Below the pieces are notes generated by a model, which saw only the letters and a program-made list of their open reading frames with translations, was not told where the DNA came from and searched no databases. DNA of 64,000 nt, taken from positions 6,641-70,640 of IMG/VR virus record IMGVR_UViG_3300012943_000033. The stretch is one strand, 5' to 3'. A program made the position numbers and the translations under genes. Every line of letters begins with the position of its first letter. Position 1 is the stretch's first letter. Below, one piece after another: positions 20,636-54,926 of the stretch. This stretch comes from a virus (lineage: Duplodnaviria; Caudoviricetes).

Positions 20636-20785
20636 TTTCACTTTCAGGTTGTTGGGTTGGGCAACCGCTGCCCGCCTCGATTCTAGAGGGTATCGCGATT
20701 TGGTGTGGCTGGTCAACGCGGTACATCGTACACGGCGCATAATCCGGCGCGAGCCTACCGCGACACTTCACAAGGTGCCACCACA

Positions 20786-23700
20786 ATGTTCAAAACCCTA
20801 ATCGCCAAAATTCGCGGACAGTCCAAAACCAACTTCGTGGAGGAACCTGATGGCGCGAAAGAGGCGAAGGCGGTTGACCCTCTGGACCCTATCGCGCGCA
20901 CTCCTCGCATGTTCGATGAGAGCGGCAACCTCCACCAAGGCTTTGCCGCCCAACTCCGGAGCGTTGACGAATTCACAGTGTTCGACGGGCTGGCCGGAGA
21001 CGACACGCAGTCCAAAGCTACAGTGGGTGACGAAGCGGTCACCATCAAGGGCGCGGCAGCGATGGATGACGGCGAGGGTTCTGGTCCCTTCGGCATGAAG
21101 GGCAATATGGGCATGGGCATGCCCGATTCGATTGGCCTCTGGTACATGTCCCAGGGGTTCTTTGGTTACCAAGCATGCGCGATCATCGCACAACACTGGC
21201 TGGTGGACAAGGCATGCTCGATGAGCGGAGAGGATGCCGCGCGGAATGGCTGGCATATCACTTCGGAAGGTGGTGACGACCTTCCGAAGGCGGAGTACGA
21301 TGCCATCACCAAGATGGACAAGGAATTGAAGATCAAAGAAAATGTGGTGGAGTTCAACCGCTTCAAAAACATCTTTGGTATCCGCCTCGCCATCTTTACA
21401 GTGGAGACGGATGACCCGCTGTACTACGAAAAGCCCTTCAATATCGACGGAGTACGCAAGGGAGCCTACAAGGGCATTTCCCAGGTGGACCCGTACTGGA
21501 TGACGCCGATTCTGAACACGGCAGGCTCTAGCGACCCTTCCAAAATCGGATTCTATGAGCCTCAGTACTGGGTGATCAACGGCAAGAAATATCACATCAG
21601 CCACCTCGCCATCGCTCGCGGCCCGCAACCCGCCGACATCCTCAAGCCCACCTACATCTTTGGCGGCGTGCCACTGACGCAGCGCATTTATGAACGGGTC
21701 TACGCTGCGGAGCGGACGGCGAACGAAGCCCCACTGTTGGCCATGTCGAAGCGCACAATGGCGATCCACGCAGACGTGGACAAAATCCTCGCCAATCAGT
21801 GCGATTTCGAGAACCGGCTGAGCCTCTGGATTAAGTATCGCGACAACCACGGCATCAAGGTTCTGGGAACCGAAGAGGCCATGGAACAGTTCGACACCAC
21901 GATGACCGATTTCGATTCGATCATCATGAACCAGTATCAAATCGTCGCGGCCATCGCGCGAGTGCCCTCCACGAAGCTGTTGGGCACCTCTCCGAAGGGC
22001 TTCAACGCCACCGGTGAGTTCGAGTCCAAGAGCTACCACGAGGAATTGGAGAGCATTCAAGAGCACATCATGATGCCGATGCTTGAGCGGCATTACATGC
22101 TGTTGGCCCGCTCGATGGGCCTCCAGACTGCCCTGGGCGTGGTATGCAATCCGGTGGACTCCGTTACCACGAAAGAACGGGCCGACCTCAACAAGCTGAA
22201 GTCGGACGTTGCGGTGTCCTACATCAACTCTGGCGTGATCTCCCCTGACGAGGAGCGCAACCGCCTGATGGACGATGAGCATAGCGGCTATGACCGGCTC
22301 AAAGAGGAGGTATCAGCGGAAGGCCAACCGGGCATGTCGCCTGAGAACCTCGCGAACCTCCAGAAAGCGGGCGCGGCAGAGACTGCGGCTGAACAGCCGA
22401 CCGCACCCGGAGGCGTACCGGGTGAGACCGACACAGTAGACCCCAGCGCCTCAGCGTCTCCCGCCGCAATCCAGGCCCTCCTACCTCTCCTCCTCTCCGG
22501 CGTGTCTACGGGCGGCAAGGCAGCGGACCCGGCCATGGCCGCCCTGCTCCTCCTCCTGGGAAAGATCGTCAGCCAACCCGATGCCGCGCCTGTCGATGCG
22601 GGACCGAGCGTCAAGCCCTCCGTATCGCCATCCACAAGCCGCTCCGTCCAGCGCGTAGAGGACGCGGAGATTGTACGCCAGCTACCCCTACACAGGATGC
22701 CAAAAATCAGGCTTAACGGCCTAAATTTGGTCGTGGAGAATCCTCGCGGCACTCTCCGGACGGGGACGGACATTGAAGGGCGTGAGTGGGCGTCGGAGAT
22801 GCCAGACCACTACGGCTTCATCAAGGGCTACGAAGGCGCAGACGGTGACGACGTTGACTGCTTCATCGGCCCCGACCTCCGCTGTGGCGAGGTTTACGTC
22901 ATCACGCAGAATTGCCCGGAGACTGGGGAGTTTGACGAATACAAGTGCATGATCGGCTACACCTCCCCGGAGCATGCGGAGGAAACCTACCGCCAAGCCT
23001 ACTCCGATGATTGGGATGGATACGGCGACATGCAGGTGATGCCTTGGGACGAATTCCAAGACTGGTTGGACTCCGGCTCCGGCGCGCATGCGATGGACGA
23101 ATTCAAGGAGGGCGACCACCCACGGGCGGAGAACGGCCAATTTGGGCAGGGCACTGGAGGCGCGGCGAGCGCGTCAAAAGAGGCGACCGCAGCCGTGAAG
23201 AAGGCCAGCAAGAACACACCTAAATCAGCCGCAGTGACTCCGACCAATACGCCCTCAACGAAGGGTACAGGGAAGGCTGCGAAGGCTGCGAAAACCACGG
23301 AAAAGCCCGCGAAGCTGAAGAGTGGGGGTTTTGCGAGTCTGACGAAACTGCCAGAGAACCGGGAAGCGTGGCCAGCCCACGTGAAGGCGTTGAACCTGCC
23401 GCCAGCTTGGCAAAACGTACACGCCTCAACCGACCCCAACGCCTACCTGCTGGCACAGGGGCGCGACGCAAAGGGCCGTCCACAGTCGGTCTACTCCGCC
23501 GCGTGGACGGAGGCGAAGACGGCAGAAAAGTTTGGGCGCGTGAAGGGGATGAACGAAGAAATCGCCCAGATGAAGGACAAGATTTCATCTGACCAAAAAT
23601 CGGAGAACGCCAAGACCCGCAACACCGCCGACGCGATGTCAGTGGTGGTCAGCATGGGCATTCGTCCGGGCAGCGATACGGACACGAAGGCGGACACGAA

Positions 23701-24151
23701 GGCATACGGGGCATCCAACCTGGAGGCGCGGCACGTCAAGGTGGGCGAGGACGGCAGTGTGACCTTGGACTTCACCGGCAAGAAAGGCGTGGCCCTGAAC
23801 CTGCCCGTGTCCGACCCAGGCGTGGCCGCGATGCTCAAGGAGCGGAAGGCGAGCGCAGGCGCTGACGGGCGGCTGTTCCCTGGTGTGTCCGACAAGGGCC
23901 TGCTAGAATATTCTCACAGTCTCGATGGTGGTGACTTTAAGACGAAGGATTTCAGAACCTTCGCGGGCACCTCCCACGCGACGAATACGATCAAGGGCAT
24001 GACAGCCCCAACCAACGAAAAGGAATACAAAAAGGCGGTCCGCGAGGTAGCCAACGGAGTCTCACAACTGCTGGGGAATACCCCAACCGTGGCGCTCCAA
24101 AGCTACATCGACCCGTCCGTGTTCTCTGAATGGAAGGCGAACCTGAAATGA
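20786..24151 (+). CDS. Portal protein (DUF1073-like) fused to an inorganic-pyrophosphatase-like domain and a C-terminal type IB DNA topoisomerase
   Basis: Portal motifs (QHWLVDKAC, YKGISQVDPYW, AAIARVP.TKLLGTSPKGFNATGE); IENPRG..R.G..W..M..HYG..G..GADGD.VDCFIGP domain at ~22697-23080; TopIB motifs LPPAW, GRD.KGR.Q..Y, IRPG, F.GKKG, KDFRT, LGNT, SYIDP at ~23350-24151; single open frame. Confidence 0.9.
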   Translation: MFKTLIAKIRGQSKTNFVEEPDGAKEAKAVDPLDPIARTPRMFDESGNLHQGFAAQLRSVDEFTVFDGLAGDDTQSKATVGDEAVTIKGAAAMDDGEGSGPFGMKGNMGMGMPDSIGLWYMSQGFFGYQACAIIAQHWLVDKACSMSGEDAARNGWHITSEGGDDLPKAEYDAITKMDKELKIKENVVEFNRFKNIFGIRLAIFTVETDDPLYYEKPFNIDGVRKGAYKGISQVDPYWMTPILNTAGSSDPSKIGFYEPQYWVINGKKYHISHLAIARGPQPADILKPTYIFGGVPLTQRIYERVYAAERTANEAPLLAMSKRTMAIHADVDKILANQCDFENRLSLWIKYRDNHGIKVLGTEEAMEQFDTTMTDFDSIIMNQYQIVAAIARVPSTKLLGTSPKGFNATGEFESKSYHEELESIQEHIMMPMLERHYMLLARSMGLQTALGVVCNPVDSVTTKERADLNKLKSDVAVSYINSGVISPDEERNRLMDDEHSGYDRLKEEVSAEGQPGMSPENLANLQKAGAAETAAEQPTAPGGVPGETDTVDPSASASPAAIQALLPLLLSGVSTGGKAADPAMAALLLLLGKIVSQPDAAPVDAGPSVKPSVSPSTSRSVQRVEDAEIVRQLPLHRMPKIRLNGLNLVVENPRGTLRTGTDIEGREWASEMPDHYGFIKGYEGADGDDVDCFIGPDLRCGEVYVITQNCPETGEFDEYKCMIGYTSPEHAEETYRQAYSDDWDGYGDMQVMPWDEFQDWLDSGSGAHAMDEFKEGDHPRAENGQFGQGTGGAASASKEATAAVKKASKNTPKSAAVTPTNTPSTKGTGKAAKAAKTTEKPAKLKSGGFASLTKLPENREAWPAHVKALNLPPAWQNVHASTDPNAYLLAQGRDAKGRPQSVYSAAWTEAKTAEKFGRVKGMNEEIAQMKDKISSDQKSENAKTRNTADAMSVVVSMGIRPGSDTDTKADTKAYGASNLEARHVKVGEDGSVTLDFTGKKGVALNLPVSDPGVAAMLKERKASAGADGRLFPGVSDKGLLEYSHSLDGGDFKTKDFRTFAGTSHATNTIKGMTAPTNEKEYKKAVREVANGVSQLLGNTPTVALQSYIDPSVFSEWKANLK

Positions 24152-24348
24152 CCGGAAAAATTGACCTCCCTGACGTTTACTTCGGGTCAGTGGACGCCCC
24201 TCCAGCCGACTGGAGGGCATACGAAGAGGAAGACCCGGATGATGAGGAGCTGGCAGAGACGCCAGAAAGCGTTGTCTTGATGTTGGGTTTCGACCCGCTG
24301 GAGCTTGACGAAGACGAAGATGGCGTTCCAAGCCCGGAAAACGCGTGA
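24148..24348 (+). CDS. Small highly acidic protein
   Basis: ATGA overlap with the portal-TopIB stop; EEEDPDDEELAETPESVVLMLGFDPLELDEDED. Confidence 0.75.
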   Translation: MTGKIDLPDVYFGSVDAPPADWRAYEEEDPDDEELAETPESVVLMLGFDPLELDEDEDGVPSPENA

Positions 24349-25174
24349 GGTAAAGCGCCCAGACCCGGTTGGGATGGGCAAACCCCTCACACCTAGCGCC
24401 GCTGTACGTTCGTGGTATGAGAGCCAAATGCTGTCTGTGGTGAACCCGATGATCGCGGACTACAAGAAAGAATTGGCGGCAGCGTTTGCCCACCCGGACG
24501 TGGCGAAGATGTACGCGATGGATGATGCTGCGGCATCCACGTTCCAGCGGGCACTCCGGGCGCTGAACAAAAAGTGGAGCGAGATTTTCAAGGGCTTCGC
24601 TGCCCAACTTGCCCCAGAGTTCGTGGACAAGGCCGACGCCCACTCAAAGTCCAGCACCTGGTTCAGCCTGAGCGCGGCAGGCGTCGAACAGCCGCGCCAA
24701 CAGTACACCGACTCAGTGTCCCGTACACTGGAAGCCTCCGTCAGCTACAACAGCACGCTCATCACAGGCATCCAAGAGGAGCTACACGAGAAACTGTACA
24801 ACTCCGTCATGCTCTCCCTTACCTCGCCAAACCCGGAGGAACAAGGCATGAGCGGGATTGCCAACGCGCTGAGAGAGGCAGGCATAACCTCCAAGGCCCG
24901 CGTGGACCTGATCGCCCGCGACCAGAATAGCAAGCTGAACGCCTCTCTGGGTACGGAGCGCATGCGCCAGAACGGCGTGGAGTTCTTTGAGTGGATGCAC
25001 TCCTCCGCAGGCAAAGTGCCGCGCCAATCGCATCTGGACAAGGACGGCGAGATTTTCGCTGTGGATGACCCTCGGCTCTGGGAAGGCCCCAAGGCCGATC
25101 AAGGCCCGCCCGGTTGGGCGATCAATTGCAGATGCAGGGCGAAACCGCTCATTGGATACTACAAGGACGATTGA
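24320..25174 (+). CDS. Head morphogenesis protein (MuF/SPP1 gp7 family)
   Basis: LIARDQ.SKLN......R....G...F.W.HS....PR.SH...DG.IF....P......PG.AINCRC. Confidence 0.9.
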   Translation: MAFQARKTREVKRPDPVGMGKPLTPSAAVRSWYESQMLSVVNPMIADYKKELAAAFAHPDVAKMYAMDDAAASTFQRALRALNKKWSEIFKGFAAQLAPEFVDKADAHSKSSTWFSLSAAGVEQPRQQYTDSVSRTLEASVSYNSTLITGIQEELHEKLYNSVMLSLTSPNPEEQGMSGIANALREAGITSKARVDLIARDQNSKLNASLGTERMRQNGVEFFEWMHSSAGKVPRQSHLDKDGEIFAVDDPRLWEGPKADQGPPGWAINCRCRAKPLIGYYKDD

Positions 25175-25176
25175 CC

Positions 25177-25596
25177 ATGACCACACGCAAGCAAGTTGAC
25201 GCAATGCACGGCCACTTCAAGGGCCGTCCCCTCTCCATGGACGACCAACAGCGCGCAGCCAATGGCCAGTTCGGCTCCGGCTCCGGCACGTCCTCTGGCG
25301 GTGGAGGCTCCAAGGAGAAAGAGGCCAAGCGTATCGCCAGCCTCCCTGCCAAGCCAGGTGCGAATGCTGGACACGAAGAGGTCAAAGCGTACAACAGCGC
25401 AGTCGCGAAGTCTCTGGGCATCAAGCCCACGAGCGCGAAGGCAAAGGCCACCGCCAAAAAGCTGGAAGCGGGCGCGGCAAAGGCCAAGGAAGCGAAGCGC
25501 ATCGCAAGCCTGCCGCCGAAGCCTGGGAAGAATGCGACCGAAGCGGAGAACAGGACGTACAACATGGCCGTAGCGAAAAGTATGGGCCTCGCGTAA
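25177..25596 (+). CDS. Lys/Ala-rich putative internal head protein with duplicated repeat
   Basis: SMDDQQRAANGQFG motif; two copies of KEAKRIASLPxKPGxNA...YN.AVAKS.G. Confidence 0.7.
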   Translation: MTTRKQVDAMHGHFKGRPLSMDDQQRAANGQFGSGSGTSSGGGGSKEKEAKRIASLPAKPGANAGHEEVKAYNSAVAKSLGIKPTSAKAKATAKKLEAGAAKAKEAKRIASLPPKPGKNATEAENRTYNMAVAKSMGLA

Positions 25597-25688: not shown

Positions 25689-27206
25689 ATGCCAGCCGCC
25701 TCCGCCCGCCTACAAGACCCCAACGGCTTCCTGCTGGTCAAAGGTTGCCCAATTTCGTCTTATGGCATTTTCCAATACTCCGCAGGGCAGGTTGGGCTGA
25801 AGGACGGCGACCCTGATCGCATCATCAACGTCTTCCGCCCAGAGTCGGCAGTGACCGACCCAGGCCTCATCCAGAGCCTCCAGAACGTCCCGCTGATCAA
25901 CGATCACGAGATGCTGTCCGGCTTCGTGGATGATGAATCCGCGACGGCCCCAGAGGACTATGGGATTGACGGCGTCCTCTTCGATGTGTCGTACCAACAG
26001 CCCTGGCTTCGTGGTGACGTAAAGGTCTTCACGCGGAAGATGCAAAATGATCTGAACAATGGCAAGAAAGACTTGTCGTTGGGCTACACTTGTGACTTCG
26101 CCATGCAGGCTGGGGAGTTCAATGGCGTGCGCTACGATTGCATTCAGACCAATATGCGCGGCAACCACATCGCCCTTGTTGGCGCTGGTCGCGTGCCTGG
26201 TGCAAAGGTTCTTGACGGTCGCAGTGTCCTTTGTTACGACCACCTTGATCTCCACCCTACCCAAAAAGGAAGCCACATGGCAAAACGTAAGGCGTCAATG
26301 GACAGCGATGCAGTCGCCCAGCTGCGCGCCCAGCTGAAGGCCCTCCTCCCTGCCTTCGAACAGTTCCTGAACGAAGAGGCCACCGAGCCTGCACACGACC
26401 CGGCTGCTGTCGCTCCGCCTGCCGCTGCCGCCCCGGCTGCGCCTGCGGCTGTTGCAGAGCCGACCGATGTGGCCGTGGACCCTGCCGCTGCCGCTGCTGT
26501 GGCCCCTGCCGCTGCCGCTCCGGCTGCTGTGGCACCGCCCGCCGCTGCCGCTCCGGCTGCGCCTGCTGGCGACCTCCCGGCTCTGATCACCCAACTCGAA
26601 CAAGTCCTGACGCAGCTGAAGGCCGCGTGTGGCGGTGGCGAGGGCGGTGGAGAGGCTCCCCCAGAAGGTGGCGAAAGCGAGGGTGACCCCGCTCCGTCCT
26701 CCGAAGAATCACCAACCAACGAGGGCGATGACATGCCTGAAGCAAACGAAACCCCAGCGGAAGAAATCCCCGAAGGCGACGCCGTTGAAGGTCTGGCCGA
26801 AGACCCCAACAGCCAGATGATCAACGCAGACGAAGCCGCACCCGACAACGGTGGCACGGCATCGCCTGGCCCGGCTGCTGGCAAGCACTCCGGCAAGAAC
26901 ACCGGTGACGCAGCGATGCGCGCGGTGTACGCCGACATCGCTGCCAAGACCAAGCTGTACGACCGCCTGTCCAAGGTGGTGGGCGCATTTGACGGCGCCA
27001 TCGACATCCAGACGGCGACAGCCGCTGACGTTGCCTCCTATGGCGTCCAGAAGCTGAAGCTGAAGGCACCCAAGGGCGGCGAGATGGTCGCCCTGGACAA
27101 CTATCTCTCCGGGGTGGAAGCTGCGCGCCGCGCCGCTCCCGCCGCCAAACGTGCCGCCGACGCGGCCACCTCCGTGCCCGTGATCGACGCCTACTTCAAG
27201 GAGTAA
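25689..27206 (+). CDS. Prohead protease (DUF2213) with C-terminal scaffold region
   Basis: D.NGFL..KGCPISSYGIF.Y; P.INDHEML; LSLGY.C; NHIALV..GR..GA.V.D; Ala/Pro- and Glu-rich C-terminus. Confidence 0.9.
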   Translation: MPAASARLQDPNGFLLVKGCPISSYGIFQYSAGQVGLKDGDPDRIINVFRPESAVTDPGLIQSLQNVPLINDHEMLSGFVDDESATAPEDYGIDGVLFDVSYQQPWLRGDVKVFTRKMQNDLNNGKKDLSLGYTCDFAMQAGEFNGVRYDCIQTNMRGNHIALVGAGRVPGAKVLDGRSVLCYDHLDLHPTQKGSHMAKRKASMDSDAVAQLRAQLKALLPAFEQFLNEEATEPAHDPAAVAPPAAAAPAAPAAVAEPTDVAVDPAAAAAVAPAAAAPAAVAPPAAAAPAAPAGDLPALITQLEQVLTQLKAACGGGEGGGEAPPEGGESEGDPAPSSEESPTNEGDDMPEANETPAEEIPEGDAVEGLAEDPNSQMINADEAAPDNGGTASPGPAAGKHSGKNTGDAAMRAVYADIAAKTKLYDRLSKVVGAFDGAIDIQTATAADVASYGVQKLKLKAPKGGEMVALDNYLSGVEAARRAAPAAKRAADAATSVPVIDAYFKE

Positions 27207-27830: not shown

Positions 27831-28964
27831 ATGATGCAACTCTCCACAACCCGCTCCCGTCTGTCGCCGCGCAAGGTCCGCGCGCTGTCGATGGACGCGA
27901 AGGACATCACCGCCGCAGCGGTGAATGAGCTGTCCAAAAAGTTTGGCATTGTCTTTGACCACTCGCTGGTCAGCGAACAGGTCAAGCTGCTGAATGGAAA
28001 CGGCGTTGGTGACGCGGCATTCGTGCCCGCCGCCACTGCCGGTTCCCTGCCCACTCCGGTCCAGTTCCTCCAGACCTGGCTCCCCGGCTTCATCAAGGTG
28101 ATGACCGCCGCTCGCAAGATCGACGACATCATCGGCATCAAGACCGTGGGCAGCTGGGAAGACCAGGAAATCGTCCAGTCCATCGTTGAACCCGCCGCAA
28201 CCGCGACGGAGTACGGTGACATGACGAACATCCCTCTGGCAAACTGGAATGTCAACTTCGTGCGTCGCTCCATCGTTCGCGGTGAGCTGGGCATGCAAGT
28301 GGGCCTCCTGGAAGAGGGTCGCAGCGCCGCCATGCGCCTGTCCAGTGCAGAGACGAAGCGCCAAGGCGCGGCAGTCGGCCTGGAAATTTTCCGCAACGCC
28401 TTGGGCTTCTACGGCTGGAATTCGGGTACCAACCTGACGTTCGGCTTCCTGAACGACCCCAACCTGCCAGCCTACATCGCCTCCAGCGTGGTCGGTGGCT
28501 GGGGCAGCGCGGCAGGCACGTTCCAGGGCATCACCGGTGACCTGCGCATGGCCATCGTGCAACTGCGCACCCAGAGCCAAGACCAGATCGACCCGGAAAA
28601 GGTCGACATGACCCTGGCGCTGCCCACCGGCAAGGTGGACTATCTGTCGGTGACCACCGACTACGGCGTGTCCGTTCGCGACTGGCTGACCCAGACCTAT
28701 CCCAAGGTTCGCGTGGTGTCGGCTCCCGAAATCGGCAAGGCCAACGCTGGCGCTGACGTCTTCTACCTCTTCGCGGAGGAAATCGACAGCGCCACGGACG
28801 GCAGCACCGATGGCGGTGAAACCTTCGTGCAGTTGGTGCAGACGAAGTTCATGACCCTGGGCGTCGAAAAGCGCGCCAAGAGCTACGTGGAAGACTATTC
28901 CAACGGCTCGGCTGGCACGCTGTGCAAGCGTCCCTGGGCCGTGGTGCGAGTCACGGGCATCTGA
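27831..28964 (+). CDS. Major capsid protein (DUF2184/PB1-like)
   Basis: [40 protein letters not shown]...CKRPWAVVR closely resembles the PB1-like MCP. Confidence 0.95.
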
Positions 28965-35600: not shown

Positions 35601-36231
35601 CACGATTCTGACCGCCAACTTTAGCCAGCCGCAATTTGTGGCGACGAACGAGACATTGAACGTTCGCGTTTGGGAGGGCATCGCGGTAGTCAACGCTGAA
35701 GTCTCGCCCTCTGCCGCTGTTACTGAGCTGCCGCTCGCAATCGACGGCCCGAAGGATTCGCCCACGACCGCTGTTATCCAGGCCGCAGACTTGGCCGCGT
35801 GCAAGGTCATCCAGCCGGTCCGTCTGCGCGTGGAGGCGGTGATGTCCGACCTCTCCCTGGTGGAGGCGATCATTGGCATGCTGGAGGATGACGTCGTCAT
35901 GATGTCTGTGGTAACGAAATCTATCATTACCAAGAACCTTATTCTCACAGAGGTCAATGTATTGCAGTCGGCTGAGATGACCTCTGCCGTCCGCGTGCAA
36001 ATGTCCTTTGAACAGGCCCAGCCGCCAGTCGGAGAGGGGTACAATCCGGAACAACCGGCGGATGGCTCGATGTACGGCGCTGGGGTCCAGAGTCTCTCAG
36101 AGGTGCAATCGCTAGGCTCCCTCACCAAGACAGTGGCCTCCTCGCTATCTCGTCCAGTTATCAAAATCTTCGGTCCGCTCATTGACGGCAAGGGCGGGCC
36201 GTTTATTCTCGACAGGAGCCCATTGGCATGA
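35593..36231 (+). CDS. Tail/baseplate structural protein
   Basis: Paralog-like to the preceding gene (D..V.QP..L); coupled. Confidence 0.6.
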   Translation: MANTILTANFSQPQFVATNETLNVRVWEGIAVVNAEVSPSAAVTELPLAIDGPKDSPTTAVIQAADLAACKVIQPVRLRVEAVMSDLSLVEAIIGMLEDDVVMMSVVTKSIITKNLILTEVNVLQSAEMTSAVRVQMSFEQAQPPVGEGYNPEQPADGSMYGAGVQSLSEVQSLGSLTKTVASSLSRPVIKIFGPLIDGKGGPFILDRSPLA

Positions 36232-38807
36232 CCGCCTCCGCATACGTCCCAGGGCAGATTCTCACAGCCGATGCGCTCAACACTTCGTTCGATGAGAAGA
36301 CGGACAACGCACTAGCCGCCATCACGGGCGGCAGTATCGACGGCATCGACCACATTACCGTTGTTGGCGTTATTGACGCCGTATCCCCTACCAGCGGGGC
36401 AGTGATTGTCACTGGCGGGGTTGGTATCGGCATGAGCTTGAATATCGCGACGACGCTGACCGCTGGTGGAGTGGTGCGGTTCCTGAGTTCCGTCGCGTCC
36501 ACTTCCTCGGCCACTGGCGCGCTGGTGGTATCGGGCGGTGTTGGGGTCGGCGGGAACCTGAACGCCAACGGCTCCGCTGCGGTGCGGCTGGGCCTCTCTG
36601 CCGCCACCTTCAACGGCACTGACGCTACCAACGCAACCAGCCCCGCCAACGGCGCGGTTCGGACGGCAGGTGGCATGGGCGTCGCCAAAGACCTGTGGGT
36701 GGGTGGTAAAATCAACTCCTCCGGTGGCATCGCGATCACCGGGGACACTACCCTGGACGGCAACCTTTCGGTCAGTTCCGTCACGCTTGCGCCAGGCGGA
36801 TACATCGAGTATGGCGACGGCACGCAACAGATCACAACCCCTCTCCCGGAAGCCCCGGCAGACACGCAGAAATACGGGCGGAAGGATGCGGCCTGGGTGG
36901 TGCTGACGGACATCCCGGAGGCTCCGACCGACAGCAAGAAATATGGCCGGCTGAACTCCGCTTGGGTGGCCCTGACGGACACTCCGGACGCGCCCAACGA
37001 TGCGTTCACCTATGGCCGCAGGGCAGCGGCTTGGGCACGGGTTACGCCCGAAGCCCCGCTGGACGCCTTCATCTATGGCCGCGCCAACGGGGCGTGGGTG
37101 AAGACGGTTACGGAGGCACCGGCAGACGGCAAGCAATACAGCCGCAAGGACGGAGCGTGGGTTGAGCTGTCGGCCTCTGGCATGTGGCGCGGCGACACCG
37201 CCCCAACGGACACTGCCCGCTACCCCCAGTGGTACAACACCACGACCTCCACGCTGTACGTCTGGTACGAAGACGGCACCAGCGCCCAGTGGGTTATCTG
37301 CGTTCCCGTGCCGACAACGGATGACGATACGGCAGGCATCCCAGAGGCTCCAGAAGACGGCAAGACGTATGGCCGCAAGGATGCGACGTGGGTGGAGGTC
37401 ACCGGTGGCGGAGGCGGTGGGGTCCCAGAGGCTCCGAATGACGGCAATCCGTACATGCGCCAGAGTGAAGCCTGGGTGCAGGCTCCGACCCCAGCTATCA
37501 GCGCAGGCGTCACCTTTGAAGACGGCGCGATGGACCTTGTGTTGCCCGATTGGGCACCGTTGACGATTGACGCTATCCAGGGCACGGCGGTCACGGAGTC
37601 GGACCCCACCACGCTGGAGTGCCAGACCAACGGCGTGGCAGTCGTCCAGATGCGCGTTCTTGTCCACCATAACTGGGGTTCGTCGGTTGTCTTCGGCTAC
37701 TCCGTGGACGGCGGAGAGATCAAGGAATTGGGTCGCGTGGTCGTGGAGAGTAACGACCCAGTGGAGGTGGTGGCCAAGTACAACGTTGACGCCGAAATCG
37801 GCAAGCTGGTGAAGGTCTACATCAGTTCCGATTTTGAATGGGCTTCGTTCTCGTGGTCCAACTTCCTGATGCAGATCATCCTCAACGATAGCGTTGGGGT
37901 TCCAGAGGCTCCTCGCGACGGCACCCCATACGCGCGGCAGGATGCGAGTTGGGTTCCTGCCGCGAGCGGCGGCGGCGGAGTCCCTGAGGCTCCAGAGGAC
38001 GGCCAACAATACGCGCGGCAGGATGCTTCATGGCAAGTCGTTGAAGGTGGTGGTGGAGGCAGCTTCGATTGGTTGTCGCTCATTCGTGGTGGAAAGAACA
38101 CTTTTGCCGCTTCTATTGGGGCAGGGTCTGGCATCACATCCGCTGCGTACTACTGCCTTGGCCTGCCAGGGTCAATGGCCGGGTCTGGCACCGTATCGTT
38201 GGCAACGCTCAGTGGATCGGCGACTGGTCTGATGTCCGTTCCGATGAACCTGATGACGGCAAACTCAGCGACGACTAGCGCCATAGCGAGTGCGACAACT
38301 TCAAACCAGTTTTTGTTCCGCAGAAGTGCGGACAAGAATGGGTTCCGCCTCATTCTTAGATGGGCTCCATATGCAGGCCTTGGCGCACAGACAGTTCGAA
38401 TCGCAGCAGGCCTCACATCAGGCTCTCCGTCAGACACTGCCATCGACAACATGCAGAATTGCTTCTTGATGGGCTTCCAGCAATTCGACAGCAACTTCTA
38501 TCTCTATCACAAGACTGGCAGCGGAACGGCTGTAAAAGACAGTCTGACTTCCGACTTCCCTGTAAATCGCCCAGGAGCGGGTTCTGATGGTGAGTGCTAT
38601 GAGATGGAGATTGATGCCACAGTCAACGATCAGATCACAACGAAGATCACGGCCCTGAAGTCCGGAAAAACGACAACGCGCGTCTACACCACTGATCTTC
38701 CTGACCCTGCTACTGGTTTGAGGATCGTCGCTTATGGGTCTGCTGGCGGAACAAGCGCACAGCCGGCAATCGCATTCGGTGGTGTGTTTGGTGAAACGAT
38801 GAGATGA
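36228..38807 (+). CDS. Large fibre/scaffold protein with nine PEAPxDxxxYxRxxxxW repeats
   Basis: N-terminal YVPG.ILTA..LN..FD.K anchor; GA.VV.GGVG repeats; nine PEAP repeats at ~36843-38035; beta-rich C-terminal domain. Confidence 0.8.
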   Translation: MTASAYVPGQILTADALNTSFDEKTDNALAAITGGSIDGIDHITVVGVIDAVSPTSGAVIVTGGVGIGMSLNIATTLTAGGVVRFLSSVASTSSATGALVVSGGVGVGGNLNANGSAAVRLGLSAATFNGTDATNATSPANGAVRTAGGMGVAKDLWVGGKINSSGGIAITGDTTLDGNLSVSSVTLAPGGYIEYGDGTQQITTPLPEAPADTQKYGRKDAAWVVLTDIPEAPTDSKKYGRLNSAWVALTDTPDAPNDAFTYGRRAAAWARVTPEAPLDAFIYGRANGAWVKTVTEAPADGKQYSRKDGAWVELSASGMWRGDTAPTDTARYPQWYNTTTSTLYVWYEDGTSAQWVICVPVPTTDDDTAGIPEAPEDGKTYGRKDATWVEVTGGGGGGVPEAPNDGNPYMRQSEAWVQAPTPAISAGVTFEDGAMDLVLPDWAPLTIDAIQGTAVTESDPTTLECQTNGVAVVQMRVLVHHNWGSSVVFGYSVDGGEIKELGRVVVESNDPVEVVAKYNVDAEIGKLVKVYISSDFEWASFSWSNFLMQIILNDSVGVPEAPRDGTPYARQDASWVPAASGGGGVPEAPEDGQQYARQDASWQVVEGGGGGSFDWLSLIRGGKNTFAASIGAGSGITSAAYYCLGLPGSMAGSGTVSLATLSGSATGLMSVPMNLMTANSATTSAIASATTSNQFLFRRSADKNGFRLILRWAPYAGLGAQTVRIAAGLTSGSPSDTAIDNMQNCFLMGFQQFDSNFYLYHKTGSGTAVKDSLTSDFPVNRPGAGSDGECYEMEIDATVNDQITTKITALKSGKTTTRVYTTDLPDPATGLRIVAYGSAGGTSAQPAIAFGGVFGETMR

Positions 38808-44321: not shown

Positions 44322-44746
44322 CCGAGCTTGCCACCAACCAGATCAACGTCCCAACCACCGCTGGGGACCGGGCTATCACGCTTGGGACGTTCCCGGCTCT
44401 GGAAGGGTTTGAGCTTGACCGTCGCTACCGGACGGATTACAAGATGCAGGCGGACCGCCATACGCGCCGCGAATATACGCTGGCAGTGATGGCGTTCGCA
44501 TCCTTCGAAGGCAAACCCCTGGACACGGTGGAAGCGATTGACGACGTGTTGGAGGTTTGGCGGAACGTGGAGCTGATCTTCCACAGCGTACTGGCGTACA
44601 ACGGAGTGGACCTCGAATTGCTGGAGGAGCGGGCACGGTGGTTTGAGTTCGCAGGCGCGGAGTTGGCCACCACGTTCATCGCGACCACCACGAGCCTTAT
44701 GGGCCCTTTCCTGAGCACTCTGGAGGAGCCTCCCCAAAATGGCTGA
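44318..44746 (+). CDS. Tail assembly chaperone-like protein (paralog)
   Basis: I..F.A..G..L..R....R.EYT..V...A...N..L.F..L..NG shared with the previous ORF. Confidence 0.6.
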   Translation: MTELATNQINVPTTAGDRAITLGTFPALEGFELDRRYRTDYKMQADRHTRREYTLAVMAFASFEGKPLDTVEAIDDVLEVWRNVELIFHSVLAYNGVDLELLEERARWFEFAGAELATTFIATTTSLMGPFLSTLEEPPQNG

Positions 44747-46880
44747 CAATGTCGAAGAGTTCATCCTCAAGTACAACGTGGACGTGGCGGAGACGCTGCG
44801 GAAGTTGGACGCTCTCAATGAGAAGCTGGACAAGACTGGGAAGAAAGGCAAGCAATCCGTCCAGAACCTTGGCACTGAGATAAGGGCCGTTGCCAAGGAG
44901 TTCGTTGTAGCTGGTGCCGCGATTGCTGGCGCTATGGCTACGGTAGCCAAGGGGATCAAGATGGCCACCGATGCGATGAAGGAATACAAGGAACAGTCAT
45001 TGTTGGCGCGGCGGAGCGGGGTCAGCCCTCTCATGCAGGAAGCGGTGGGCAACAACCTCGCCCGTGCGTCTCGCGGCAGGATTGGCGTGGCAGAGAGTCG
45101 TCAGTCTATCGACGCTGTGGCCAACGCCCTGATGAGCGCGTTCACCGACCCAACGAAAAGCAACACCCAAAATATCAAATTCAGCCAGATGGGTGTCAAG
45201 ACTACCGGCGCCAACGGCCAGATTGCCGACGCTGGTGAGACGATGAACGAATTGGGAAAGCGTTGGAAGCAAATGTCCTTGGAGCGGGCAGAGGCGGAGG
45301 GCAAGGCGCTGGAGTTGACGCCGCAGGTGACGGCAGCGATTCGTGACTTGGGCGGTGCGGTTACGGACACTTCCAATCTCACGCTCGCGGCAGTCCAACG
45401 GCAGGACGAAGCCGCGAAGGCAGCGGTGGAGTTGGAAGAGGCCACGACCGGCATCACCAAAGATTTCCGCGAGATGACAAAGGTGTTGATTGACGACGCC
45501 ATGCCAGCCCTCGCGGCCTACTACAAGCAGATTCAGAAGGACACCCACAACTTCGCCCAGAAACTGAGCGACGAAGGGACGATGGGTTTTCTCAACCACG
45601 CTGGACGGTACTACAAAAAGGCGTGGTCAAACCTCTGGGACGGCAAGGGCATCCCCACGACCCGCGAAGAACAGGACGCCCTCTGGGATGACACCGGGGT
45701 CAAGAAGACGGAGGAGGAAAAGCGGGATGACGACCGCAAAAAGAACGACATTCTGGACCGTCAGCGCGACGCGGCGAAAGGGCAGCAAAGCGCAGCGGCC
45801 AACAACGTCCTCGCCACCAACCAATTCTCTGCCGCAGTCGCGGCCATGCCCGGTTCCCTGTCTATGCAACAGGCGATTGCGATGTGGGCCGGAGAGTTCG
45901 GGAAGGGGCAGACCACAGGAGGGGCTGGATACGTCTCCGGGTCAGCGCCTGCTGGAGGGTCGATGGCGCCCGGTGGGTCCCGGCACGTCGCGACGGTTAC
46001 GGTAGGCGCAGGGGACCACGGTTCAATCGTCTCGTCGCTCATGTCGAAGGGCTGGACGGAGAGTCAGGCTGTCGGCATTGCCGCGAACCTCCACCAAGAG
46101 AGTAGCTATGACCACACGGCAGTGGGCGACGGAGGCAAGGCATACGGCATTGGCCAGTGGCACCCGGACCGCCAAGCCAACTTCAAGAAGGTCTTTGGCA
46201 AGGACATCAAAGAATCCACGTTGGAGGAACAGATCGCCTTCGTGGACTGGGAGCTACGGAACACCGAGAAAGGCGCTGGTGGGCGTCTGATGGGCGCAAA
46301 CAGCGCAGGTGACGCCGCGTCAATCGTCTCACAGTACTATGAGCGACCCAAGGACCGCTATGGAGAGGCGTCGCGTAGGTCCGCGAAGGCTACGGCAATG
46401 GCCGGTGGTCTGCGGACCCGTCCGACCGGCGCGCAGGGCATGGCGACCGGGCAGCGGCAGATGGTACAGGACGGTATCGCGCGACGCATTGGGATGAAGA
46501 CGGAACAGTTCAAGCGCGAAGGCGCCACGAGCGGTGACGTCCAGTACGGCATCGCGGCCCAGAGGCGCGGCTTTGAAATCGAAATCCTCAAGTTGGAGAA
46601 CGAAGTCAAGAGCTTCCAGGCAGCTGGCAAACCCCTCGCGGCGAACGAGAAAGCGGCGGAGCTTTACCAGATGCGCCAGCAAATGCAGATGTTCGAGAAA
46701 TACTCACCGGGCATCCTTCAGGATGCGCGACCCGGCGACCGCGAACGGACGCAGGGGATGACGATCATCAACGTCAACGGCGTGACCGACCCGGTGGCCA
46801 ACGCACTGGAAATCAAAAAGATCATGGGACAAGAGATGGGCAAAGTCGTCAACGAAGTATCGTCCAAGCATGTGGGCTAA
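44739..46880 (+). CDS. Tape measure protein with phage tail lysozyme domain
   Basis: Helical Ala-rich N-terminus; GWT..QA.GI.ANL.QES....A.GD.G.AYGIGQW...R lysozyme domain at ~46030-46390. Confidence 0.9.
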   Translation: MADNVEEFILKYNVDVAETLRKLDALNEKLDKTGKKGKQSVQNLGTEIRAVAKEFVVAGAAIAGAMATVAKGIKMATDAMKEYKEQSLLARRSGVSPLMQEAVGNNLARASRGRIGVAESRQSIDAVANALMSAFTDPTKSNTQNIKFSQMGVKTTGANGQIADAGETMNELGKRWKQMSLERAEAEGKALELTPQVTAAIRDLGGAVTDTSNLTLAAVQRQDEAAKAAVELEEATTGITKDFREMTKVLIDDAMPALAAYYKQIQKDTHNFAQKLSDEGTMGFLNHAGRYYKKAWSNLWDGKGIPTTREEQDALWDDTGVKKTEEEKRDDDRKKNDILDRQRDAAKGQQSAAANNVLATNQFSAAVAAMPGSLSMQQAIAMWAGEFGKGQTTGGAGYVSGSAPAGGSMAPGGSRHVATVTVGAGDHGSIVSSLMSKGWTESQAVGIAANLHQESSYDHTAVGDGGKAYGIGQWHPDRQANFKKVFGKDIKESTLEEQIAFVDWELRNTEKGAGGRLMGANSAGDAASIVSQYYERPKDRYGEASRRSAKATAMAGGLRTRPTGAQGMATGQRQMVQDGIARRIGMKTEQFKREGATSGDVQYGIAAQRRGFEIEILKLENEVKSFQAAGKPLAANEKAAELYQMRQQMQMFEKYSPGILQDARPGDRERTQGMTIINVNGVTDPVANALEIKKIMGQEMGKVVNEVSSKHVG

Positions 46881-54029: not shown

Positions 54030-54926
54030 TCACAGGTCTTCCTTGCCGCGCAGGGCTTCGAATACGCCGTGGCGAGGTGCGTCCACTACCCCATGCGGGA
54101 AATACTTGAACCGGGCAAGCTGTGCAAGGTACTCACCCGGATGCTCCCAGGCATGCTTCCGCACCTTGTGCGACATGGAGGAGGCACTGATACGGAACGG
54201 GTCCGGCCAGAGGTCAGACTTGACCACGAATGCACCCACCATGCCCGTGCCCTGCTGGGCATCCTTGCTGACGGATTTCTTCGCGCGGCCTAGCGGGTCC
54301 GCTACGGAGGCGGTCAGGTTCTCCACCTGTTCCTCCAGCGCGATAATGGTGGCCTCCTCGCTGATGAACCGCTTGACCTTCAGTAACAGGTTCTCGATGA
54401 CCGATGACCGGCCATATTTGTACTTGCCGTCAGGGTCGCGCAGCATGATGCCCTCGAAACCGGCGTCCACAGCGCATTTCTCCACCTCCAACATCTCGCC
54501 CAGGGAGTGGACGGTGGCGTGGGAGACGAACACCAGCCTGGGGTCGTCCATCGCGGCGATGCGCAACCGGGCGTTGTTCAGCCGCTCGTGGAAGGGCATG
54601 TCTGGGTGGGTACGGTCGTCAAAGATATGCCACCGCACATCCGGCTCACCGATAGCCTTCCGCACCGGCCCGGAGGTGTTGTGGAAGGCGTTCTTGTCGT
54701 TAGCCGCGCCCACGATCAACTCCCCGTCCAGCCCCTCGAAATCGCGGCCCTTGAAAATGTCGTGGGTGAATTTGTTGAGGACGGGCGTGCCACTACTGGT
54801 GCGAATTTTGCCTTGGTAGCTGAACGCCCGATACCCGTCCAGTTTGACGCTGGCCAGATACGGGAAGCGTAGCCGCGCCTCCTCGTAATCTGACGCCTTC
54901 ATGGGCTTGTCGATGAAACCGGTCAT
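54030..54926 (-). CDS. lig: ATP-dependent DNA ligase
   Basis: KLDGYRA adenylation motif; LDGEL; FEGIMLR; LLKVKR. Confidence 0.95.
   Translation of the reverse strand: MTGFIDKPMKASDYEEARLRFPYLASVKLDGYRAFSYQGKIRTSSGTPVLNKFTHDIFKGRDFEGLDGELIVGAANDKNAFHNTSGPVRKAIGEPDVRWHIFDDRTHPDMPFHERLNNARLRIAAMDDPRLVFVSHATVHSLGEMLEVEKCAVDAGFEGIMLRDPDGKYKYGRSSVIENLLLKVKRFISEEATIIALEEQVENLTASVADPLGRAKKSVSKDAQQGTGMVGAFVVKSDLWPDPFRISASSMSHKVRKHAWEHPGEYLAQLARFKYFPHGVVDAPRHGVFEALRGKEDL

Follow-up and report, generated by a model that had tools for sequence, protein, structure and literature searches.

The window analysed here, a stretch of 64 kb out of a complete 70.6-kb virus record of IMG/VR, comes from an uncultured PB1-like phage and carries a gene in which a phage portal protein, an InPase domain and a type IB topoisomerase (TopIB) are joined in a single open reading frame (ORF). 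The junction in front of the TopIB pairs a likely Ala-Met-Asp head-protease site with a widespread short peptide, called the HPR..G.F tag below; given this pairing, the TopIB probably enters the capsid as cargo and is freed there. On balance, the segment is probably the joint at which a swappable cassette was appended to an ancestral portal-InPase protein, release in the capsid included. The gene is composed as follows.

20786..24151, plus strand: portal-InPase-tag-TopIB gene (1121 aa from the ATG at 20786; the frame is open back to the GTG at 20705)
22694..23068, plus strand: InPase (OB-fold pyrophosphatase-like) domain (PF18823, E = 9.6e-43)
23090..23098, plus strand: A796-M797-D798, putative prohead-protease site, with the bond between nucleotides 23098 and 23099
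23099..23161, plus strand: cargo-module leader tag EFKEGDHPRAENGQFG (nucleotides 23099-23146) with its Gly-rich tail QGTGG
23162..23380, plus strand: basic linker rich in Lys, Ala, Thr and Pro, variable in length (predicted local distance difference test, pLDDT, below 50)
23381..24148, plus strand: TopIB with intact catalytic pentad (phmmer E = 1.4e-22 to 2F4Q)

The portal-InPase-tag-TopIB fusion is real and recurs across independent samples, the same architecture being common to at least 10 independent metagenomic homologues. Within the single ORF the order is portal, long Ala/Pro linker, InPase, tag, Lys/Ala/Pro-rich linker and TopIB. For the frame 20705-24151, Pfam places Phage_portal_3 at aa 155-502, InPase at 664-788, Top1B_N_bact at 893-921 and Topoisom_I at 935-1130. 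Portal, InPase and TopIB thus share one ORF beside the MuF, protease and capsid genes, which is the mark of a polyvalent or portal-fused effector. The Topoisom_I match (PF01028) reaches 79.3 bits against a cut-off of 23.7, the residues identical to R137, K174, R239, N280 and Y289 of the D. radiodurans enzyme (2F4Q) are all kept, and the AlphaFold2 model of the domain has a pLDDT of 85-98. The TopIB cassette is active-looking by sequence, and DNA relaxation by it is predicted only. The linker in front of it contains 8-14 Lys and Arg residues versus 1-6 Asp and Glu residues in 10 homologues. According to the first-pass annotation of this DNA, the TopIB half starts right after HAMD. The HAMD junction is indeed present, and the Pfam TopIB domains lie about 95 residues after AMD; since a Gly-rich stretch and the Lys/Ala/Pro-rich linker precede them, the 'TopIB half' is really a TopIB cassette.

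The peptide HAMD-EFKEGDHPRAENGQFG is found at 23087-23146 in the context ..SGSGAHAMD-EFKEGDHPRAENGQFGQGTGG.., and a putative cleavage after Asp798 (HAMD/EFKE) is rated as likely. A cut-site matrix was built solely from the sites of relatives, and 1128 Asp positions of the window proteome were scored with it; residues P5-P1 of the junction (AHAMD) are among the top three (top 0.3%). Directly before the tag, small-M-D occurs in 5 of the 10 portal-InPase-TopIB homologues compared, and the other five have TGD, GD-KA, QD-ED or FDD-EE. Fifteen tags of the PB1 lineage are preceded by Asp in 14 cases and by small-M-D in eight. AlphaFold2 gives the junction segment a pLDDT of about 36-59; such a low-confidence, probably disordered segment should be accessible to a protease. 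Cleavage between portal core and InPase was considered as well and rejected, there being no conserved Asp site at this place among the relatives. InPase therefore probably stays on the portal, and the earlier idea of a portal polyprotein is to be narrowed: it fails between portal core and InPase and holds, if anywhere, for the last junction.

The head genes of the window are 50-66% identical to those of PB1-like myophages (Pseudomonas Pbunavirus, Burkholderia Bcepfunavirus) and follow the order portal fusion, MuF, 139-aa gene, DUF2213 protease-scaffold, decoration protein and major capsid protein. The genes downstream of the fusion that are discussed here, and the putative cut sites of the head module, are listed below.

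24320..25174, plus strand: MuF-like head protein (Pfam Phage_Mu_F, phrog_324)
25177..25596, plus strand: small tagged protein of 139 aa in the cargo slot (ribosome-binding site AAGGA 9 nucleotides upstream of the ATG; homologues P0127/P0128)
25689..27206, plus strand: DUF2213 prohead protease fused to scaffold (Pfam PF09979, phrog_3778)
27831..28964, plus strand: major capsid protein (maturation site VGD61/AAFVP, VGDAA starting at 28005 and D ending at 28013)
21023..21067, plus strand: region of the two putative portal N-terminal cuts, the first being TVGD/EA, D ending at 21031 (Asp in 22/23 relatives)
21056, plus strand: second putative portal N-terminal cut, AAMD/DG within AAMDD, D ending at 21067 (Asp in 18/23 relatives)
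24515..24523, plus strand: AMD of the MuF site YAMD73/DAA, YAMDD starting at 24512 (Asp invariant in 36/36 relatives)
26295..26303, plus strand: putative cut ASMD205/S at the protease-scaffold junction, ASMDS starting at 26292 (positionally conserved)
26901..26909, plus strand: putative scaffold cut TGD407/AA (Asp invariant in 51/51 relatives)
about 27150..27161, plus strand: putative scaffold cut RAAD491/AA, scaffold aa 488-491 (predicted by the matrix, conserved in most relatives)
27885, plus strand: LSMDA, with the further, upstream capsid-protein site LSMD22/A (small-x-Asp motif)

An Asp-specific cut rule is well supported in the PB1-like lineage. Edman sequencing of the major virion protein of KPP12 gave the N-terminus SNFTAPV... 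(PMC3474789), and the cryo-electron microscopy (cryo-EM) model of the E217 capsid protein begins at residue 66 (PMC10329688). The capsid site VGD61/AAFVP of the window aligns exactly onto S-A-M-D64/SNFTAPV of Pa193 and KPP12. As the KPP12 N-terminus lies directly after AMD64, there is experimental ground in this lineage for a cut after A-M-D, and the statement in the first-pass annotation that PB1-like capsid proteins mature after such a motif was correct. The Asp of the maturation site is invariant in the unique N-termini of 49 relatives' sequences from viral contigs, while P2 is mostly Met (also Asn, Gly or Phe) and P3 is small. The first 93 residues of the Pa193 portal are invisible to cryo-EM and to liquid chromatography-mass spectrometry (PMC11456595), and this portal carries SVAMD72/S at the first of the portal N-terminal sites. 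In total, six sites have an Asp whose position is conserved, in 18-51 relatives each, between flanks that vary. The consensus of the cut is Ala/Gly at P3, Met, Gly or any residue at P2, Asp at P1 and Ala/Ser at both P1' and P2'. The scaffold site RAAD491/AA, which was absent from the matrix training, ranked 4th of the 1128 positions and was later found to be conserved in most relatives, and it is therefore taken as an independent validation of the matrix. Cleavage at this site (KRAAD/AATS) would remove about 14 residues at the scaffold C-terminus. The 3rd position of the ranking belongs to a non-head protein of the tail region (44739-46880), where NSAGD/AASI at aa 525 may be a spurious match or an additional substrate.

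The peptides quoted in the first-pass annotation (portal AAMDD, MuF YAMDD, protease ASMDS and TGDAA, capsid LSMDA and VGDAA, and both tags) all lie where it had put them, but its claim that such motifs recur only in head proteins does not hold. [AS]MD, a motif chosen post hoc, occurs six times in 2680 head residues versus twice in 17343 others, in the genes 36228-38807 and 54030-54926 (odds ratio 19, Fisher p = 1.3e-4); shuffled head proteins contain 0.98 copies on average and fell short of the observed six in all 2000 shuffles. [TV]GD is found four times in head proteins versus 15 times outside, without head enrichment (p = 0.31), and two of its four head copies fall on positionally conserved Asp sites. 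The proposed comparison of head with other proteins thus comes out in favour of [AS]MD and against [TV]GD. The xGD expression was rejected as a motif at background frequency; it is of no use because the rule is small-x-Asp.

The cut could be performed by the DUF2213 protease (PF09979 match, E = 6.4e-32), in which His73, Ser130 and His160 stay unchanged across 33 sequences. The top Foldseek matches of its AlphaFold2 model are herpesvirus assemblins and T4 gp21, both weak (E = 1.5e-3, template modelling score about 0.35). On sequence and model together, an assemblin-like protease is a credible assignment for this domain. In the open-access literature, nothing was found on an Asp-specific DUF2213 cleavage rule.

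Judged by its conservation, the HPR..G.F tag is a genuine peptide; thousands of polyvalent or head-module proteins of phages have cargo modules that begin with it. It stands at the head of a module and has the core [FW]-x-E-x-x-H-P-R-x(2-9)-G-x-[FW], after which comes a stretch rich in Gly and Ser. Every invariant core residue is present in the copy at 23099-23161; an alignment of 38 homologues shows no variation at E, H-P-R, G and F. This copy scores 46.7 bits against the tag profile, in a test that is circular since the copy belongs to the profile. Among 120 TopIB relatives, 108 tag instances were found, with the consensus A-x-D-A-E-F-K-E-S-D-H-P-R-x(3-8)-G-K/Q-F-G-S-G-G-G-G, and their partners are four portal families, DUF2213, MuF, NUDIX and ADP-ribosyltransferases. 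A profile of eleven copies matched at least 2115 representative proteins among 1.84 billion at E <= 1e-3, a lower bound, as a single tag copy scores too low to pass. Across 500 unique tag instances among these matches, E, H-P-R and G-x-F/W are essentially invariant. These numbers support the earlier remark on HPR-type motifs leading many head-packaged phage proteins, in that the tag is a widespread leader of cargo modules. The census is headed by a protein of 7334 aa (P0129) with 19 tag copies, and another protein of 5313 aa has 16. In the 149 census proteins analysed, the median spacing of tags is 270 residues, about one per domain, and in 58 of 147 census proteins no more than 60 residues separate the first tag from the N-terminus.

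AlphaFold2 gives the tag core a pLDDT of 59-74 and its flanks 36-44. Neither the tag instances of the TopIB relatives nor the 10 homologues contain a conserved Asp downstream of the tag. A cut after the tag was accordingly rejected, and a cut in front of it would leave the tag on the new N-terminus of the cargo. Loading or retention is the best guess for the role of the tag; an exit signal or a protease exosite is possible.

A second copy of the tag is carried by the small gene at 25177. Its protein consists of a leader ending in LSMD (25234-25242), then DQQRAANGQFGSGSG, then two repeats of about 35 aa, and it has no match in Pfam or in the protein atlas. LSMD-DQQRAANGQFG, earlier described as near-identical to the first tag, is a degenerate copy: the R-A-x-N-G-Q-F-G-x-G half is shared and R-x3-G-Q-F-G-S-G is kept, while F-x-E and H-P are missing. 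The subtype [DE]QQRAxNGQFG is common to this protein and its two homologues, the three members of the family reading LSMD-D in the window, FALD-EQQRASNGQFG in P0127 and VAMD-DQQRAANGQFG in P0128. The whole genome contains only these two tags, which share 8 of 10 core residues with only two identical codons. Shared residues without shared codons indicate that selection acts on the tag peptide itself. Recent duplication was rejected as the source of the two copies, as the codons differ.

The proposed sequence of events is as follows. The cassette, comprising leader tag, Gly-rich stretch, basic linker and active-looking TopIB, would be placed inside the procapsid in twelve copies by its fusion to the portal. 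The protease would cut after Asp798, freeing tag-TopIB in the head, and the small protein encoded at 25177 would be trimmed likewise after LSMD. The tag, kept on the mature N-terminus, would most likely serve capsid loading or retention, possibly portal exit. The TopIB would then leave with the DNA and act on DNA topology early in infection. More tentatively, and with some doubt, HPR..G.F could be a general portable signal for capsid loading (possibly ejection) of enzyme cargo in many lineages of tailed phages, combined with lineage-specific protease sites (small-x-Asp in the case of DUF2213 proteases) in a modular 'address plus cut' code.

Several observations weigh against release at this junction and against its general form. 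The prime side of the junction, E-F-K-E, misfits the A/S-A/S preference, so that the full junction score is unremarkable (72nd percentile). In relatives the last InPase helix reads MSMDDFK within the folded domain, and xMD alone does not, therefore, imply cleavage. AlphaFold2 left the protease's own junction undocked from the active site. In the broad census, Asp stands at -3 in only 15% of tags and the enrichment of small-x-D ahead of them is only 2-fold, which means that a tag need not come with a cut site; the tag core is universal, and the preceding cut site looks lineage-specific. No close relative of the TopIB cassette was found by tblastn in 50,697 deposited phage records, and the open-access literature yielded no relevant publication on the HPR..G.F tag. 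The tag, which has no match in Pfam, is apparently undescribed.

In the window the last InPase helix (23036-23066) reads MPWDEFQDWLD; in L005, L006, L009, L011-L013 and L015 it reads MSMDDFKNWLE. The likeness of this helix to the junction peptide AMDEFKEG could be fortuitous, or it could give recombination a foothold at which cassettes are appended.

The first alternative is that the TopIB stays on the portal via flexible linkers, without release, and that A-M-D is the acidic edge of the tag. Twelve copies beside the DNA channel would then relax torsional stress in packaging or ejection, which is feasible inside a capsid since TopIB requires neither ATP nor Mg. The prime-side misfit to the conserved sites agrees with this, as does a tag consensus that is acidic at -3 to -1 whatever the lineage. 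InPase, moreover, seems to stay on the portal, without a conserved Asp site before it, and the virion portals of E217 and Pa193 have about 240 invisible C-terminal residues. A permanent tether accounts poorly, however, for the occurrence of the same TopIB cassette as a stand-alone protein or fused to NUDIX, off any portal, and for the ADP-ribosyltransferase, without obvious use on a portal, that occupies the same position in a relative. The match of P3-P1 to the capsid site of the lineage itself, which ranks in the top 0.3% and recurs in homologues, also argues for a cut, and a tethered TopIB is considered rather unlikely.

Alternatively, the junction could be inert and the tag a mere linker or a recombination scar for cassette swapping, similar to the VENN-type motifs that serve this purpose in polymorphic toxins. 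Tags do occur at every module boundary at the median spacing of 270 aa, cassettes are clearly exchanged here (TopIB versus ADP-ribosyltransferase versus nothing), and in the tag copies of contig L084, 61% of identical residues share the codon too. A scar would hardly keep E, H-P-R and G-x-F/W invariant over 500 instances from very different proteins, and the window copies keep the peptide, not the codons (2/8). Stand-alone proteins, which have no need of a junction, also carry tags in their first 10-20 residues, and AlphaFold2 is more confident in the tag core than in its flanks. An inert junction is improbable on this evidence. Pure chance, with the xMD/xGD recurrences as a post-hoc pattern of no biological meaning, could appeal to a motif picked after data inspection, to [TV]GD at background and to the very high-scoring NSAGD/AASI in a tail protein, but it is largely refuted, and has very little probability left, in view of the 19-fold enrichment of [AS]MD in the head, the Asp positions that 18-51 relatives conserve at six sites while the flanks vary and the experimental N-terminus at one Asp site.

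Comparison with relatives shows how the cassette is exchanged. Most relatives' portals end a few residues past InPase (about 8 residues past the aligned end in Pa193), where the window continues with HAMD-EFKE. In the close relative L010, with 83% capsid-protein identity, the gene at L010:2672-6415 encodes portal-InPase-tag-ADP-ribosyltransferase (PF03496), and its junction reads ..ISMAD-AAEWKESDHPRAKNGQFGSGGGG.. before the ADP-ribosyltransferase domain. Contig L084 has four separate head-module proteins in which the tag follows 10-17 residues after the start, mostly located between MuF and the DUF2213 protease, that is, in the slot of the window's 25177 gene. The region L084:7922-21363 contains seven tags in four proteins, including a four-tag NUDIX-TopIB polyvalent protein and an ADP-ribosyltransferase. 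The stand-alone tagged proteins of L084 have leaders of the form x-[LIND]-D-A-P-[PH]-K-F ahead of H-P-R.

A tblastn search of deposited phages with the 37-aa tag region returned one weak match, Phage WC36-2 (L086, OL791266.1; 2760-7038), with portal, MuF, a 174-aa tagged protein and a DUF2213-like gene in this order, the tagged protein occupying the slot of the window's small gene. The 174-aa protein begins with MTMARHIHVHFYTGD-AGEWKEGDHPRAENGQFG.. (FYTGD-AGEWKEGDHPRAENGQFG). This phage, whose record is unannotated, may be the closest laboratory-accessible example. In another phage, L085:3307-6465 encodes an HK97-type portal (PF04860) with a weak LAGLIDADG match, possibly an intein. That phage encodes, in addition, a TopIB-NUDIX protein with the tag and a protein of 1464 aa whose last domain is InPase; a Pfam scan of two neighbouring proteins recognised no protease family.

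Portal-InPase fusions and packaged effectors anchored to portal or MuF are already published, with the portal-InPase protein BcepF1.124 as an example (Iyer, Burroughs, Anand, de Souza and Aravind 2017, PMC5512222). The window resembles these systems in that a head-module protein strings enzymatic domains behind a portal, co-delivery with DNA being predicted, and in that InPase is fused to the same portal family (PMC5512222). As far as the available text of that paper goes, it contains no TopIB-portal fusion, HPR..G.F tag or Asp cut rule, and the word topoisomerase occurs once in the whole of it (PMC5512222). The window differs by the TopIB cassette that follows InPase behind a defined junction. 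Nothing on a TopIB cassette on a portal was found in the open-access literature.

Head proteases that cut small-x-acid motifs and process cargo are likewise already known from T4 and phiKZ-like phages: T4 gp21 acts on proteins with capsid-targeting sequences (IPI-III and Alt), and the phiKZ/SPN3US proteases cut by an S/A/G-x-E rule. The likeness lies in a head protease of assemblin fold that would cut capsid, scaffold, portal-vertex and packaged proteins at a small-x-acid motif, and in cargo enzymes that would be loaded into the head and ejected. P1 is Asp in the window and Glu in these systems. The T4 targeting sequence is removed, whereas the conserved tag, being downstream of the putative cut, would remain on the cargo; in addition, the cargo of the window can be fused to the portal itself. 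The tag was rejected as a targeting sequence of T4 type ([LI]-x-Glu), as the motif is another and no Asp follows it, and the likeness is functional only.

KPP12, E217 and Pa193 (Pbunavirus) share with the window the head-gene order and capsid maturation after A-M-D, the portal-InPase being 52-54% and the capsid protein 66% identical. They differ in that their portals end after InPase; a scan of the 16-kb head region of Pa193 detected no tag, TopIB or small tagged protein. D. radiodurans TopIB (2F4Q) and the poxviral TopIB have the same fold and the same R-K-R-N-Y catalytic pentad, but in the window the enzyme is encoded as the last, C-terminal part of a phage portal protein and is preceded by a tag and a basic linker. 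The vaccinia virion carries TopIB, and a capsid-delivered TopIB would, if confirmed, be a phage parallel to this packaged topoisomerase.

The choice and loading of injected phage proteins are understood for few models (T4, P1, N4 and phiKZ-like phages). If the reading given here is right, the tag and the Asp rule together would form a readable code that predicts virion cargo in thousands of uncultured phages, and 'address plus cut' would let phages swap pre-packaged TopIB, ADP-ribosyltransferases and NUDIX hydrolases. It would also define the specificity of the large uncharacterised DUF2213 family, used also by therapeutic Pbunavirus phages, and provide a means of bringing proteins of choice into capsids.

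In Pa193, unassigned peptide densities of about 16 residues, three per hexon, have been described on the inner capsid surface (PMC11456595); they could mark a binding place for head-internal peptides of the PB1-like lineage. Finally, a very acidic 66-aa ORF (MTGKIDLPDVYFGSVDAPPADWRAYEEEDPDDEE...), seen from translation alone, is located on the plus strand at window positions 24148-24348; its ATG overlaps the TopIB stop codon, and its 3' end runs into the MuF start.

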